From: Eledone cirrhosa
Taxonomy: Eukaryota
Length of the DNA stretch: 64,000 nucleotides
Reading direction: 5' to 3'
Assembly (NCBI GenBank): GCA_964016885.1
Contig: OZ024741.1
Span: 96,162,001-96,226,000 of the forward strand
Positions within the stretch are counted from its first letter, which is position 1, and each line of letters opens with the position of its first letter. The notes below the pieces were generated by a model. That model did not search any database. It saw nothing but the letters and a program-made list of their open reading frames with translations, and was not told where the DNA came from. Positions 14,737-56,650 of this stretch are shown here, in pieces. A program made the translations under genes and the position numbers.

Positions 14737-17700
14737 TTATATTGACAGGATCTTCCTTAGTATATGGGCAGTTCCCATTAGTACTATCTTTTGTATTTCT
14801 CCTATACGCGGGTTTCCTGGGATTTGCGATAAGTAGTCGTTAGACCCCTTAGGTATCATTCCCAGAGCGCCTACAACCACTGTTATTGTTTTAGTTCTCA
14901 ATTTCCACATTTTTCCAATTTCTATCTCCAGGTCCTTATACTTGCTCAATTTTTCAAATGTTTTTATAGATACATTCTTGTCTATTGGAACAGACATATC
15001 AATTAGCAGGCATACCCTCCTTTGAAAGTCCTTCAATATTATATCAAGTCTATTTGCATCTATTTTTCGGTCTGTTTGGATGCTAAAGTTCCACAAGATT
15101 GAGATGTGATCTTTTTCAAGTATGGGAGGTGGTTGATGCTCCCACCAATTCTTTTGATGGGGCAGGTCAAAATGCTTACACATTATCCAATGTATGTATT
15201 GTGCAGCTCTGTCATGCCTGTTTAGGTATTCGGTTGGAGCTATAGGACTGCACATTGAAATTATATGGTCAATGGTCTCTGGTTGTTTTTTGCATACACG
15301 GCATAATGGGCTGCACCCATTTCTTATTATGTTGGCTTGGTAATTTTTTGTTGGCAGACACTGATCTTGTGCTGATATAATCAGTCCTTCAGTCTCCGAT
15401 TTCAGTCTAGAGGATGCCAACCACTGATGGGTTAAAGTTTTGTCAACATCAGGATTGTTAGCTCGCTCTGGGTATTTTCCATACAGAGGCTTTTCTTGCC
15501 ATTTCTTAGCCAGTTTCTGTAGCAGTTCTTTCTTTGCAGTTACTTTTACCTGCTTTGCTTTTTCTGTGTTTTCCATTTCAGCAGTAAATGGGACTTCTGA
15601 AATTTGTAGTCCATTACTGTATCTTTGTGCATCTTTTGTAATGGAATATGATCTTTTGGTGCTTTCGTGTTTCAAAACGAGTTTTATCATCCAATCATGT
15701 GATTCCCTTAGATATGTGGATAATCCAATTGTTGCAGTTTTCAACGCAATGTCTAACTGGATTAACCCGCGTCCTCCTTCTTTCCTAGGGAGATATATTC
15801 TATCTATGTCTGCCTTAGGGTGATGCATTCCGTGCATGGTTAAGAATTTTCGGATTTTTGTATCGAGCCTACGGATCTCTGTGCTTGACCAGTTGATGAC
15901 ATTGTAACTGTAGGTTACTACTGGTATGGCAAGTGTGTTTATGGCATCGATCCTATTCCTTGCATTCAATTCCGTTCTTAAGATTGCTCTGACTCTGCGG
16001 TAACATTCCTTCCTTATCCTTTCCCTCATTGTCGAGTGCTTGATTCCGTCTCCTTCACAAACACCTAGATATTTGTAAGTTTTTTCTTGATCAAGCTCTC
16101 TTATCACGTTCCCCCGATCAAGATTAATGTCTGAACTCTTCAGCAGCTTTCCTCTGGTGAACGTTGCTTTGGCGCATTTATCCAGTCCAAACTCCATTTT
16201 AATGTCATCACTGAACTGCTTCACAGTGGATAATAGCCCTTGCAATTGTTCATCATTTTTTGCAAATAGTTTCAGGTCATCCATGTAGAACAGGTGATTA
16301 ATGGTTTTGTCATAGACTCTATATTCATGTTTTGTTTCATTGAGCATTTTACTTAATGGTATAAGTGCGATGCAGAATAAAAGCGGTGATAAAGAGTCAC
16401 CCTGAAAAATTCCACAATTAATATTAACTTCTCCAGCTTCCATTGATTTTGTTTCACTATTCAAAAGGAGTGTCGTTCTCCATGTCCTCATACTGAATGA
16501 CAAAAACCTCCTGACAACGGGGGATATTTTGAAAATCTCTAAACATTTTTCAATCCAACTGTGTGGCAAACTATCGAATGCTTTTTTATAATCTATCCAA
16601 GCAATCGATAGATTTTTGTGTCTATTATCACAATCTTCCAGTATCATTTTGTTAACCAGAAGCTGATCCTTACAGCCATATGAGCCTCGCTTACACCCTT
16701 TCTGCTCAATGGGAAATAGGTCATTTGTTATCAGGTGGTCATATGTGTATTCAGTTAGGACTGATGTTAAAATTTTATACATTGTGGTCAAGCAGGTTAT
16801 CGGTCTGTAATTTTTGGGATTGTTTGTCTCATCATTCTTCGGTAGCAGGAATGTAATGCCGTTAACTAGCCATGATGGTATCTTTTCTGGCTCCTTAACT
16901 ATTTCATTGTAAAGTTGGGCTAACAGCTCATGAGACTCTGTGATGGCATTTATCCAAAAGTTTTGTATTTTGTCTTTTCCTGGGGATTTCCATTTGCTGG
17001 TTTTTCTTAGAGCCAAGCGCAGCTGTTCAACTGTTATATTTTCCCATGTTTGTTCTTCAAGGTGAGCTGTTTCTTTCATTTGTCTGTCTATCCATGGGGC
17101 ATGTATGTTATGAACTTTTTCTTCGGCCCAGATTTTTTCCCAGAATTCTTGCACTTCCTCCTTGGGTGGTATTGATTTAGCAGTTATTGTTGACTTACCA
17201 ATTTTTCTGTAGAAGTTTCTTTGGTTGTTTTTGAACATATTATTGTCCTTATAGAATCTAGATCGTTTTTCAAAGCGCCTTATACGAGCAGCTTTGGCCG
17301 ACACTTTTTGCTTGATTGTTTCTATCAGCATGTCTATGTCACATGTTGATCTTATACTGTACTTTTTTTTCAATTTTCTAAGTTTAGTTTGTTTAACATG
17401 TTCACCTACTTTATAGTTTGTTAAAATTTCTATGTCAGATCGGAGAAGGTTTATTTGGCGATTGATGTTATCTTGCCAAGTAGATTTCTTGTGGGAATTC
17501 CTTTGTTTTTTCATCTTCACTCCACATAAGTGAGTGGTGACTTTAGCCGATGCATAATAGAGATGATTTAAGTCAGTAATGTTTAGTTTGTTTGTGATGA
17601 TAATGTTTTTGAGAATTATGTTAGTCTTGTGTATTATCTTTTGGTTCTGTTTGGAGTTCTGGATCTTAGGGAGGGTGTCTCGTTGCCCCATGTCAGATTC

Positions 17701-17835
17701 TTTCATTTTCATCCATTCGATCATAATTTCATCCTTCAAGTTGGCAAGTTCATTCTCATTCATTTCTTTATCATTTACGATCTCATTATTTTTATTTTCA
17801 TTTGGAGTTTCATCCTGAGCATGCACTCCCTCCAC
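14737..17835 (-). CDS. RT, CCHC zinc knuckle and RLE endonuclease (1032 aa)
   Basis: NYRPITCL, IDYKKAFDS, GIFQGDSLSPLLF, YMDDLKL, CRVC..ETIDHIISMC, RHD, NRLDII, IDMSVP, K..KYKDL. Confidence 0.9.
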   Translation of the reverse strand: MEGVHAQDETPNENKNNEIVNDKEMNENELANLKDEIMIEWMKMKESDMGQRDTLPKIQNSKQNQKIIHKTNIILKNIIITNKLNITDLNHLYYASAKVTTHLCGVKMKKQRNSHKKSTWQDNINRQINLLRSDIEILTNYKVGEHVKQTKLRKLKKKYSIRSTCDIDMLIETIKQKVSAKAARIRRFEKRSRFYKDNNMFKNNQRNFYRKIGKSTITAKSIPPKEEVQEFWEKIWAEEKVHNIHAPWIDRQMKETAHLEEQTWENITVEQLRLALRKTSKWKSPGKDKIQNFWINAITESHELLAQLYNEIVKEPEKIPSWLVNGITFLLPKNDETNNPKNYRPITCLTTMYKILTSVLTEYTYDHLITNDLFPIEQKGCKRGSYGCKDQLLVNKMILEDCDNRHKNLSIAWIDYKKAFDSLPHSWIEKCLEIFKISPVVRRFLSFSMRTWRTTLLLNSETKSMEAGEVNINCGIFQGDSLSPLLFCIALIPLSKMLNETKHEYRVYDKTINHLFYMDDLKLFAKNDEQLQGLLSTVKQFSDDIKMEFGLDKCAKATFTRGKLLKSSDINLDRGNVIRELDQEKTYKYLGVCEGDGIKHSTMRERIRKECYRRVRAILRTELNARNRIDAINTLAIPVVTYSYNVINWSSTEIRRLDTKIRKFLTMHGMHHPKADIDRIYLPRKEGGRGLIQLDIALKTATIGLSTYLRESHDWMIKLVLKHESTKRSYSITKDAQRYSNGLQISEVPFTAEMENTEKAKQVKVTAKKELLQKLAKKWQEKPLYGKYPERANNPDVDKTLTHQWLASSRLKSETEGLIISAQDQCLPTKNYQANIIRNGCSPLCRVCKKQPETIDHIISMCSPIAPTEYLNRHDRAAQYIHWIMCKHFDLPHQKNWWEHQPPPILEKDHISILWNFSIQTDRKIDANRLDIILKDFQRRVCLLIDMSVPIDKNVSIKTFEKLSKYKDLEIEIGKMWKLRTKTITVVVGALGMIPKGSNDYLSQIPGNPRIGEIQKIVLMGTAHILRKILSI

Positions 17836-18380
17836 TTTTTAATTTGTTCTGTTGCCAGTGATTCCGCCCCAACCCTGGGATTCGAAGTGTTACAGTTTAC
17901 CTCGTTTTCACTGACACATGCTTCATTTTCCCTTCGCTGACTTTGTGCTACTAGCTTGATCTGATCAATTTCTATATCAGTTAGTAACTTTTTTCTTACA
18001 ATATTTCTTCGTATAATGGCTAGTTTGTTACTGTCAATATAGCCTCTGTTTTCGGGATGTTTCTTTTTCCAGTTGATATATGTTTGTTCTGTATTCGATG
18101 TATTTGATGGGTAGTACATGGCAGTGTAGAAAGCCTCAAGAACTTCTTTATTATCTTCCCTTGACCATTTTTCTCTCTTTTTCTTTGGATTTCTTGGTGG
18201 TGAGCATGGAGGGCCAACAGTAGGAGTATTCCGGTTATGGGAGGTCTCCAGCTCCGAAGTGATGGGAAGGTTTGAACCATTAGCTGATTTTTCGACCCCA
18301 GTCTGGTTCCTCTCTGAGGGACGCGGCCCTTTTTTACCCGGGTGACGGCCGATCCGGTATGAGATTTTATCATTAGACAT
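17775..18380 (-). CDS. N-terminal part of the same R4/Dong ORF (frameshift near 17835-17840)
   Basis: KREKWSREDNKEVLEAFY, LAIIRRNI..KKLLTDIEI N-terminal motifs; joins EQIKK to VEGVHAQDE across an A-run. Confidence 0.8.
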   Translation of the reverse strand: MSNDKISYRIGRHPGKKGPRPSERNQTGVEKSANGSNLPITSELETSHNRNTPTVGPPCSPPRNPKKKREKWSREDNKEVLEAFYTAMYYPSNTSNTEQTYINWKKKHPENRGYIDSNKLAIIRRNIVRKKLLTDIEIDQIKLVAQSQRRENEACVSENEVNCNTSNPRVGAESLATEQIKKWRECMLRMKLQMKIKIMRS

Positions 18381-27403: not shown

Positions 27404-27523
27404 TATATAAGTTTATCCCGGGTTCAATCAGGGGGTAAGCACAGTACGGTACTCAATACATAGTAGAGTATAAATATTTAATATACAAATGGCTTCTACA
27501 GGACTATATATATATATATATAT

Positions 27524-29604
<2,081 letters not shown>

Positions 29605-30097: not shown

Positions 30098-30557
30098 TTC
30101 TTTATTGATAGTATTGTAGGTATTATTATTAGTTAATTGAAATTTATTGGTAATACTATTAGTTAAAAGTTGGTTATACAAAGTAGTATTAACTTCAAAG
30201 AGATTTTTAGTTTTATCAGAAAGAACAAAAGTGTTTGTAGAATTTCTAAAGTCAGAAATATCGTTAGATAGTTTAGTTTGAAAGTTATTATTGTACCTAC
30301 GAAATTTGATATCACTAATTAGATTAACAAGGTCTAATTCGAAGTTGGCCATGTCTTAAATTCTAGGTGGATATTTACGGGATTTGATGTCAAAACAATC
30401 TTTAGTATCAGCACTGAATAGTCCATCGTAAACCATTGCCTTCCATCTCATTCTTTTAACGACTTGTTCGATTTTATCTATGAGGAATTTTGTTATAAGT
30501 TGTGTTGGAAGGAGTGGGTATATTTTTGATTGAATAATCCAATTCATAAAGATCCAT
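30075..30557 (-). pseudogene. PLE ORF N-terminus
   Basis: ATG at 30557: MDLYELDYSIKNIP...KRMRWKA...FELDL.NLISDIKFR...SDKTKNLFE. Confidence 0.8.
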
Positions 30558-30773
30558 GGTGTATGTTGGTTAAATTCCTGAAAACTGTAGAGTGCTCAAC
30601 TAATCGGGCTAGAAAGTGCCAATCGTATATGTAATATAGAATATGCTTCAATCAATCCCAGTTGGAGCTGTATAAATGAAGTAATTCCGTCGGAAAAGTC
30701 CAGGAAAAAAGAGTGCTCTATGTAGGTAACGGAGCTTAATAGTTATGTAATAAACAACATAAGGCAATTATTC

Positions 30774-30826
30774 CATTTACCAGTGGTTTCTTAAAAGCAA
30801 AAATTTTGCTTTCAATCCTCAGAATG
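30774..30826 (-). ncRNA. Type I hammerhead ribozyme (GUA triplet), 220 nt upstream of the PLE ATG
   Basis: Minus: CATT CTGAGGA ttgaaagcaaaatttttgcttttaa GAA ACCACTGGT A AATG. Confidence 0.85.
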
Positions 30827-30982
30827 AAAAAAATCCTGGTGTTTATTGAATTTGGATTTTAAAAACAAAAATGCAATCTATATGAAAGTGAGGCTGGAGA
30901 AGGAAGAAGGAAAATAAAAATAAAATAAAACTACACATGCAAACACACATACAAAAGCACGCACACTCACACACGAAAGCAT

Positions 30983-45656: not shown

Positions 45657-47221
45657 CAGTGCCCCGCAAAAGTTTACAACACATTAGGAAAAATGCGGTT
45701 TTAGGTATTTCTAATAAAGTTAGGGTAATGATAGAACATATAATGAGGCATTTAATGATACAATCATATTTTTAAAAAAATAACAAGGAAATAACTCATG
45801 AAGAAATATCAATATTTTTATAACGCAAAAGTTTACAACACATTTTATATTTATCGCTTTTTGTCAAGAAAATTCTTAAATTTTCAGATTTAAAATTCAG
45901 TAGAATGTTCTAGATTAGGTTTAAGGTAACTTCTAAAGACTATTAAAAACATTATGTCATTATTTGTCTGACAACCATCCTGTAAACATTGACAACCGTC
46001 CTGTAAACATTGACAATATGGGGAAAAATAAACTGATCAAGACCTCCGTAATCGGATTGAAGACCTTCATACAATTGGTGTTGGTTATAGAAAGATATCT
46101 TGTCTGTTAAATGAGCCATTGAGTTCAGTTAGTACTATAATTCGTCACTGGAAATCTCATCATTCCATTTTTCCTTTAATTAGTTCTGGTCGTCCTAGAA
46201 AGATAACAGAACGTGCAGCTCGGTTATTGACGAGAAAGGTTGGCAACGAACCCCGGTGTACTCTTAAAAATCTTCTAGAAGAAAGTGGAGTAAAATTGAG
46301 CACAGATACAATTAGTCGTTCACTTCGTCGATATGATATCTTCTCGGGGTCTCCAAGGAAAACACCACTTCTTACGAGGAAACACGTTCTTCGTCGATTA
46401 AACTTTGCAAATGAGCATCTCATCAAACCTGCGTCATTTTGGGAAGATGTACTTTGGTCGGACGAAACAAAAATTGAACTTTTTGGTCGAAATGCTGTGG
46501 CAAAAGTCTGGAGAAAGAAAGGTACTGAATATTCGCCGAAGAATACTATTCCAACTGTAAAATTTGGAGGTGGATCAATCATGGTCTGGGGTTGCTTTAG
46601 TGCCACAGGTGTAGGAAATATTGAAATAATAGAAGGAAGAATGGATGGCGCTTATTATAGAGGTATTTTGCAAAGGAATTTACATCAAAGTGCACATTCT
46701 CTCAGTTTAAAGTCAGGTGGGTTTTTCAACAAGATAACGATCCAAAGCATACTGCAAAGCTAACACAATCTTGGTTAAGTACGAATGGAATAAATGTTCT
46801 AAAATGGTCAAGTCAGTCTCCAGATCGAAAATTTGTGGAGAGAACTGAAACACAGAATTCAAAGAAGGAAACCCCAAAATATCCCTGAACTAAAGAAAAT
46901 TTGTTGTGAAGAATGGAAAATTATTAGCCAAGAAAAATGCAAGAAGTTTGTAGGGGGCTACTCCAAACGCCTATAACAACAAAGGTTACGCTACGAAATA
47001 TTAAGAGATGATTTAATAAATGTGTTGTAAACTTTTGCGTTATAAAAATATTGATTTTTCTTCATGAGTTATTTCCTTGTTATTTTTTTTTAAATATGAT
47101 TGTATCATTAAATGCTTCATGATATGTTCTATCAGTAGTTACATTTTCATTACCCTAACTTTATTAAAAATACCTAAAACCACATTTTTCCTAATGTGTT
47201 GTAAACTTTTGCGGGGCACTG
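45657..47221 (+). mobile_element. Tc1-family DNA transposon with long IR/DR terminal repeats
   Basis: TA|CAGTGCCCCGCAAAAGTTTAC...GTAAACTTTTGCGGGGCACTG|TA; ~190-205-bp TIRs, each with two gcaaaagtttacaacacatt direct repeats. Confidence 0.95.
46018..47004 (+). pseudogene. Tc1 transposase, frameshifted
   Basis: [50 protein letters not shown] with LNPI deleted, ENLW. Confidence 0.9.
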
Positions 47222-54591: not shown

Positions 54592-54674
54592 ACTTCCAAC
54601 TAATTAGTTTCTGGAATGGAGTAAATATATTTTCCGAAGAAACATATGGAAAATCATTCCGTCATCAGGAAAGT
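54592..54674 (-). ncRNA. Type I hammerhead ribozyme
   Basis: Reverse complement of 54955-55037. Confidence 0.85.
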
Positions 54675-55573: not shown

Positions 55574-55847
55574 AAACTTAGGAAAATCAACAAGTGTAAA
55601 CAAGGCAGAACAAAAAAGAATTATTTTAAGGGGAAACATTAAAGAAATATTTTTTGAAAATAAAAATACAAACGGTTCATCGGAAGTTGAGAGGGACTTT
55701 GGCAGTTTCGACCCCCTTCCAACGGTACAGTGTCACAACAGTCAAAGCGGTATCCTATGGAGTAAGAGACGAGACAAATGAGCAACTTACAGCACGAAAC
55801 ACTGATGATTGAAAGAAAGGAAAAAATAAAAAAATATATATATATAT

Positions 55848-56020
55848 TTAATATATCTCATATAAAATAATACAGCCAATTATCCACAAAATACAATATA
55901 GTTAGTACCCCAAACGTTTAAATGGGAATATACTCCGGTATTTCCTAATGTTTGTTGAGTGAGTTGGAAATTGGTCGGAGTATCGCTAATAGCTTTCTCC
56001 GTTTATGTAATTATATACTT
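55848..56020 (+). mobile_element. Diverged homologue of the 27524/28523 terminal repeat
   Basis: tctcatataaaataatac...ccacaaaatac...ctaatgtttgttgagtgag...tcggagt. Confidence 0.8.
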
Positions 56021-56024
56021 TTTT

Positions 56025-56650
56025 CTAGAGCGAGTAAAATTCCCGAGATCCATGGACGAGGTCTCTCCAGCGGTCTCTGTCCCTCATTATCGCTGCCATG
56101 TCCTGCGTCTCCAACAGACCAGTGTCTGTTCTTAGGGCATCAACATACGTTAACCTTGGTCTTCCTCTTCTAGTGTGTCCATGTAGGGGATCCCACAGGA
56201 GCACTGAGTGCAATGCCAACTCTGGATGTCGGTGAGCATGTCCAGCTAACCTCAGTCTCCTCTGTGTCACTTTTGAGCTGACTTTTGGGATGCTCCCATA
56301 CAGCTCTGAGTTTTTCATCCTCAGTGTATACTGATTAATGTTCAGAGCCATCCTCAGCATTCTCGTGTAGCACCCATCCACCATCTGAGTGAGTTTCTTG
56401 ATCAGTGTCCAAGTCTCAGACCCGTACAGCAGCACAGACTCCACTACAGCAATGAAGAGGCGGATTTTCAGGTCTTTATGCAGGTCAGATTTCCATACCG
56501 ATCTCAAGCTGTGGCATGCTGCCCAAGCTTTGCTCGTCCTCTCAACCACATCATCTTCCGTATTCCCAATATTTGCTCCCAAATACCGGAAGTCCTCAAC
56601 CAATTCTAGCGGCTTCCCGCCTACATTAATGATCCCTCTGGCTTCTTAAC
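56025..56650 (-). pseudogene. RTE-type LINE 3' ORF fragment
   Basis: VEDFRYLG, LKIRLF.AVVESVLLYGSETW, RRLRLAGH, RRGRP. Confidence 0.85.

Follow-up and report, generated by a model that had tools for sequence, protein, structure and literature searches.

A bulged helix on both sides of the insertion end of an Eledone cirrhosa retrozyme, and its putative role as a binding signal for Hydra-clade Penelope proteins

Structured RNA recruits reverse transcriptase and sets its start in the R2 3' UTR, the stem-loops of L2 and SINE elements and the template-flanking elements of telomerase RNA, and it is established that in target-primed elements the 3' end of an insertion is defined by reverse transcription. 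Penelope reverse transcriptases are the sister group of telomerase. Closest to the system reported here are the animal non-LTR retrozymes, non-coding tandem units that carry one type I hammerhead ribozyme with a palindromic loop 3, occur both as dispersed monomers and in long arrays, and are linked to Penelope-like elements (PMC7229834; bioRxiv 10.64898/2026.07.22.740005). In their accessible parts the preprint leaves the mechanism of mobilisation open, and neither source describes a cis motif of the kind presented below. Penelope-like elements of the Hydra clade (Craig et al. 2021, PMC8557442) have (TA)n targets and GUH hammerheads near the 3' end; the available text of that paper reports only the hammerhead for this clade and not the motif. 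For Poseidon of Anolis (PAc), which belongs to another clade, the available text (Frangieh et al. 2024, PMC11167929) describes an internal start in vitro 85-92 nt past the hammerhead site, a need for RNA on both sides, AT-rich targets and a predicted protein dimer; the region concerned lies inside the ORF, and a binding motif is only hypothesised.

The window analysed here is a stretch of 64,000 nucleotides of the Eledone cirrhosa assembly (GCA_964016885.1, contig OZ024741.1, positions 96,162,001 to 96,226,000), from a genome of 3.0 Gb that holds many (TA)n runs and Penelope-like fragments. A preliminary description of the window had compared 28545-28700 with 55857-56010 and proposed a covarying RNA domain just downstream of a ribozyme; the sequences and coordinates it gave for the compared copies are correct. 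We identify 55850-56015 as the 3' terminal domain of a retrozyme that is non-coding, arranged in tandem and present in the window in two families (M1 is the motif described further below):

55850..56018, plus strand: family A copy, 5'-truncated so that just the 3' terminal domain is left, with a (TA)n run on one side and a short TATATA on the other, without a hammerhead of its own
27520..28706, plus strand: family B insertion, which spans 1.2 tandem units of 999 bp and has (TA)n flanks
27546..27707, plus strand: first family B domain, M1 at 27595-27651, reading through into the unit
28545..28706, plus strand: second family B domain, with M1 at 28594-28650 and (TA)n at its end
28392..28516, plus strand: type I hammerhead with stem I at 28392-28396/28512-28516 and its core at 28397-28403 and 28500-28504; stem II is branched, a palindromic tetraloop caps the 2-bp stem III, and cleavage is predicted after 28511

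The domain at 55850-56015 has two relatives within the window at 77% identity, the one at 27546-27707 being its third copy there. Genome-wide there are 2186 candidates, and a pattern drawn from the two most constant segments of the domain has 4343 exact matches against 0 in the reversed control. The tandem units measure about 680-1000 bp with one type I hammerhead apiece, and occur as an array and as dimers of 679-1000 bp; they are about 680 bp long in family A and 750-1000 bp in family B, which includes a long array on C2. This array (C2:312270000-312325000) consists of dozens of 747-749-bp units and extends over at least 55 kb. In both families the hammerhead combines a branched stem II with a stem III of 2 bp and a palindromic loop. 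Stem II (28404-28499 in the window; also L152-L171) has grown into a branched domain of about 95 nt that is kept with different letters in families A-F. Over 27520-28706 the family B insertion contains no ORF reaching 120 aa. Related sequence is found in contigs of three other organisms, where it covers 23, 25 and 17 of 30 family B unit bins, with no piece spanning a unit.

(TA)n is the insertion target of the retrozyme, and its 3' end is fixed while 5' truncation varies. With insertion ends taken from the assembly alone, 56 of the 70 copies of the domain run into (TA)n at their 3' end, in 52 cases 50-58 nt past the GAGT of M1; in a further 10 the sequence continues into the next unit, and 4 are interrupted by other inserts. 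The 5' ends of 15 of the 70 fall between 18 nt after and 2 nt before the predicted cut and none in the next 23 nt upstream, at a site that is itself TA-like and in a partly biased sample. Non-coding tandem units, hammerheads, fixed 3' and variable 5' ends together make this the anatomy of a non-LTR retrozyme. Units of 680-1000 bp, the branched stem II and a cis motif in common with one Penelope clade set it apart from the animal retrozymes as the available text describes them, and unlike the Hydra-clade elements, whose (TA)n targets and GUH hammerheads near the 3' end it shares, it encodes nothing.

The statement that the domain lies directly behind the ribozyme is true of the family and of the copy at 28545, which follows the hammerhead at 28392-28516, but not of the copy at 55856, which is cut about 12 nt past the predicted cleavage site. 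A CTGATGA at 55802 was rejected as a hammerhead, since neither a stem II nor GAAAC..GUH comes after it. An inverted pair of one identical CTGATGA-containing segment lies at 54668(-) and 54961(+). What we take to be a LINE 3' fragment (56025-56645, minus strand) abuts the 3' end of the 55850 copy on the other strand. The window also holds, at 46032-46763 on the plus strand, what is presumably a Tc1-like transposase fragment and, at 14737-18380 on the minus strand, a near-intact 1033-aa non-LTR reverse transcriptase ORF (RVT_1, E 1e-29) with an overlapping frame upstream.

The transcript of the family A domain is predicted to fold as follows:

55869-55874 with 56006-56011, plus strand: closing helix P0, nearly invariant; the insertion ends just 3' of it
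55875-55886 with 55965-55975, plus strand: P1, a strongly covarying scaffold helix
55906..55961, plus strand: motif M1, its outer helix formed by 55906-55910 and 55957-55961 and its inner helix by 55911-55915 and 55950-55954, with a UU bulge at 55955-55956
55921..55949, plus strand: P3, a covarying hairpin in the loop of M1
55976..56001, plus strand: P4, a hairpin with an internal loop
56012..56018, plus strand: 3' end of the insertion and inferred start of reverse transcription, an A/U-rich stretch that merges with the TA repeats

We aligned 26 copies from 7 subfamilies, chosen out of about 65 by leaving aside truncated, deleted and near-identical ones. RNAalifold returns P0, P1, P3, P4 and a helix between the segments previously taken for linkers, in a register slightly unlike our manual one. 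In the manual register 9 of 46 pairs show double changes (6/10 in P1, 3/12 in P3) and 94% of cells pair, compared with 35-41% in slid controls; the covariation score was attained by 0 of 500 shuffles, which ignore relatedness. When each subfamily is reduced to its majority sequence, pairing persists in every state at 12 of 16 variable pairs, against 68 of 1308 random pairs of variable columns, and 10 variable pairs show a double change against 59 of the 1308. P0 is predicted and not shown by covariation because it is nearly invariant. The covariation that the preliminary description expected is thus found in aligned copies, and two of its three stems, P1 (actgg/ccagt against gccaat/attggt) and P3, do vary on both sides while keeping their pairing. 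Its remaining stem, P4, has no double change within the seven subfamilies, where families A-E show one-sided changes only and the differences lie in the internal loop; here the claim survives only against the distant family F, in which P4 does show double changes. Family F, which surfaced through a short-gap pattern that mostly gave deletion copies, preserves the layout, with P1, P3 and P4 built from different letters. M1 likewise has no double change within A-E, and its outer helix contains one C.A mismatch there that is U-A in F. The linkers were said to be invariant; most family A copies read ccacacaatac in place of ccacaaaatac and further subfamilies differ again, and the second of them, aatgtttgttgagtgag, is not a linker: it supplies the bulged helix M1 with its 3' strand.

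Folding against shuffles is stronger for the sense strand (z -2.06 and -3.08) than for the antisense strand (-0.79). In single-sequence folds the outer helix of M1 has a probability of 0.48 in family A and 0 in family B, where a downstream ACUC pairs with the GAGU of M1 instead and where P1 is at 0 in the monomer. Rfam 15 gave 0 matches at gathering anywhere in the 64-kb window and none for the domain at E up to 10 (copies L004 and L032). We conclude that the RNA structure at 55850-56015 is real, covarying and beyond the Rfam families. As a compact, covarying domain in the terminal repeat of a retroelement, a place where ribozymes are common, it might be a second self-cleaving ribozyme. HDV-like, twister and pistol ribozymes have pseudoknotted folds. 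No pseudoknot of these kinds is present here, a screen of the unpaired columns having found no additional 4-bp helix retained by 90% of the rows; the core that other families share is a simple hairpin, and together with the negative Rfam search this makes a second ribozyme highly improbable. The parts of the domain outside M1 are likely to be a family-specific scaffold that sets spacing.

That shared core, motif M, is a bulged helix of the form RC(U/C)C-stem...stem-U(U/A/C)-GAGY, first met behind other hammerheads of the same window and lying 30-79 nt ahead of a (TA)n junction in some 22 unrelated families of repeats in this genome. At least six more hammerhead families occur in the window (1583(-), 26219(-), 30822(-), 34196, 35454, 44431, 50040(-) and 60479), mostly followed by M and then (TA)n. 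A 615-bp tandem repeat (L121:70-740, L025, L123) carries M1, M2 (the second copy, described below) and a likely third M per unit with (TA)n ends, and no hammerhead core was noticed in it. We scanned 144 sequences (523 kb) with a descriptor of M, using reversed and complemented strands as control. Outside the query families there were 95 matches against 17 in the control, falling into 44 clusters, 2 of which are stragglers of the query families. Of these matches 65 lie 30-79 nt 5' of (TA)n, as do 8.8% of random positions and 6 of the 17 control matches, while 15 of the 95 lie so on the upstream side; by cluster the figure is 24 of 44, both stragglers included. Over these 24 families the outer pair is A-U in 16 and G-C in 8, and the inner pair is U-A in 12, C-G in 8, A-U in 3 and G-U in 1. 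Inner pair 2, at which the descriptor did not ask for it, is purine-pyrimidine in 24 of 24. The totals of genome-wide scans were set aside, since TA runs are multiply counted and the control also matches inverted copies; among 33 distinct places scored from them, several from one family, 18 have a 3-bp inner stem against 7.5% by chance.

A metagenome scan asked only for a hammerhead core and the 3' half of M, and returned at least 119 stretches. Among the matches listed, the 5' half of M with a 3-bp inner stem is found in 33 of 46 that are hammerhead-like (13 of 24 families) and in 2 of 73 others, which leaves 13 of the 46 without full M; under a stricter hammerhead test, again among the matches listed, full M is found in 21 of 29 against 14 of 90. 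At least 13 of the metagenome loci carry pieces of Hydra-type ORFs. Three loci with hammerheads of another type (GAAACATGT; L243, L266, L284) lack M, a hint that M is clade-restricted.

The conserved letters of M could instead act as DNA, as an internal promoter or an endonuclease recognition site. GAGY is often directly followed by RCT, so that GAGYRCTC would be near-palindromic, and as far as the respective texts describe it Drosophila Penelope has an internal promoter inside its terminal repeat (PMC2377424) and an endonuclease that needs tail sequence (as cited in PMC11167929). The two-sided changes over variable loops, the sense-strand G-U found at inner pair 2 in 7 of 24 families and the strand difference in folding are RNA-like, however, and the retrozyme family studied here has GAGTGAG, which is no palindrome; we regard a DNA-level function as very unlikely.

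A second copy of the motif, M2, lies beyond the insertion end, as seen in family B:

5' strand 27711-27717 with 3' strand about 27888-27896, plus strand: motif M2, the strands about 178 nt apart
about 27962-28148, plus strand: M2 repeated by internal duplication

Internal duplications of family B (27947-28190 in the window; L034, L045, L065) copy a 250-bp module that starts from the end-site sequence and includes the whole of M2. In read-through copies M2 begins 5-10 nt past the insertion end, with ACTCTTR 59-61 nt after the GAGT of M1 in 10 of 10, and in a wider set 15 of 25 have the matching TTGAGT 175-236 nt later. RCUC stands 5-10 nt past the end site in six families (A-E, F, the 615-bp repeat, L178, H1 and window 30822). 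The inner helix of M2, over about 175-195 nt, is TTGG/CCAA in A and CCAGC/GCTGG in F, wholly different letters with pairing kept; it has only 2-3 bp in H1, C and E and is imperfect at window 30822, and a 3' half was looked for in L178 and not found. The alignment fold pairs M2, in a set that was chosen for having both M2 halves, and single-sequence folds give its long-range pairing a probability of 0-0.02. Since those folds lack M2, and family B prefers GAGU with ACUC, a switch or a protein-stabilised fold would be needed. With M1 before the end site and M2 after it, the inferred start of reverse transcription is bracketed by two copies of one motif, and the evidence places the signal in the supposed linker helix and in this second copy, not in the variable stems where it had been sought.

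The same signal is found in autonomous elements. The Penelope proteins of the window and of family H1 carry the Hydra-clade marks DKT, RW(K/R) (RW(R) in H1) and CxCx5C, and M is common to the retrozyme, H1, window 30822, the metagenome loci with Hydra-type ORFs and, as far as the published material shows them, the Hydra-clade consensi. By eye, M is clear in 4 of 6 of these and doubtful in 2 (Amil-1 and Crog fit poorly), and the Ajap-1 and Obim consensi as published end without M1. The element in the window is:

30380..30830, minus strand: 5' end of a broken, unrelated Hydra-clade element, running from hammerhead through M1 and end site to M2, whose inner stem is imperfect, with an ATG 36 nt later

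H1 (L130:1501-3360) has 11,592 candidates genome-wide, with many 713-aa open frames, and many of its copies have inverted terminal-repeat pieces at the 5' end. At the metagenome loci the second motif comes 40-47 nt past M1, with a Hydra-type ATG 33-45 nt further on in at least 3 loci. None of 120 loci screened was an autonomous element with this exact domain or with terminal-repeat homology to it. L087/L121 was rejected as an autonomous parent: there the domain is truncated by a Hydra element that is unrelated and has a terminal repeat of its own.

Throughout the autonomous elements M2 is a short hairpin that precedes the ATG, by 22 nt in H1, 36 nt at window 30822 and 33-45 nt in the metagenome. 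This is what would be seen if M were a translational operator or an RNA stability or export element, to which a protein or host factor binds at M2, with M1 a mere duplicate. Against this, non-coding retrozymes retain both M2 halves, with 175-236 nt of diverged sequence between the two, and hold them at a constant distance from where the insertion ends, and we think it quite unlikely that such a role is the whole explanation; it may be a second role of M2 rather than the sole one. M could also, as a protein-binding or tertiary element, serve to regulate the hammerhead (its folding, the cleavage of dimers or circularisation) and not the start of reverse transcription. M1 always lies close behind a hammerhead, the weak stem III is of the dimer-dependent type described in the available text of PMC4209133, and the Anolis hammerhead is described as cutting only with protein present (PMC11167929). 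The hammerhead-to-M1 distance nevertheless varies from about 65 to 215 nt while the M1-to-end and end-to-M2 distances are narrow, and insertion by the Anolis protein in vitro is reported, in the available text, to be unaffected by hammerhead mutants (PMC11167929), so that we consider hammerhead regulation unlikely.

The reading we prefer, at a probability of roughly 0.7, is that M1 and M2 are binding sites of the Hydra-clade Penelope protein and fix an internal start of reverse transcription. A multimeric or hammerhead-cut transcript would fold P0 to P4 and present M1 and M2; the reverse transcriptase-endonuclease of an autonomous Hydra element, acting in trans and possibly as a dimer, would bind the bulged GAGY helices, nick (TA)n and prime on the short A/U-rich stretch that separates P0 from M2. 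M1 would then be copied into every insertion and M2 left out. As the 3' end of an insertion marks where reverse transcription began, the start is placed between M1 and M2, and such a start would leave M1 in the insertions and M2 outside them, which is the genomic pattern. We know of no sequence or Rfam similarity to the R2 3' UTR, the L2 and SINE stem-loops or the telomerase RNA elements, and the bracketing of an internal start by a small repeated motif differs from all of them. Compared from the paper's description, PAc is alike in its internal start downstream of the hammerhead, the RNA required on both sides, its AT-rich targets and its predicted dimer, and unlike in its clade, in the location of the required region inside the ORF and in the nature of the start site, which is an AC-rich stem-loop there and an A/U-rich strand between helices here (PMC11167929). 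The covariation, the strand-biased folding, the negative Rfam search, the fixed 3' position and the core shared with Hydra-clade elements lend most support to the reading that the preliminary description had suggested, an undescribed cis-acting RNA linked to a Penelope-like reverse transcriptase. The twin motif around the start site appears to be undescribed: we found no description in the literature, though supplements, Repbase notes or subscription papers could mention it.

We also entertain, tentatively and at less than even odds, a wider proposal for the Hydra-clade elements as a whole. In these the paired bulged GAGY helices would be docking sites for a protein dimer and at the same time a ruler, with the start 5-10 nt before the second helix, comparable to the template boundary of telomerase RNA. 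Any RNA carrying the pair would be mobilised, which would explain the animal retrozymes, and M2 would in addition be a feedback operator before the ATG.

How Penelope reverse transcriptases recognise RNA and start internally has been addressed in only one in vitro study, which in its available text merely hypothesises a binding motif (PMC11167929). A small motif with covariation across families and a fixed geometry around the start makes the question directly testable, and the 713-aa frames of H1 could readily supply the protein for in vitro experiments. M can serve as a marker for classifying the many short (TA)n-inserted repeats and, if its role is confirmed, would be a minimal cargo tag for a Penelope-based insertion system. 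For the retrozymes themselves, it points to the Hydra clade as their likely autonomous partner.
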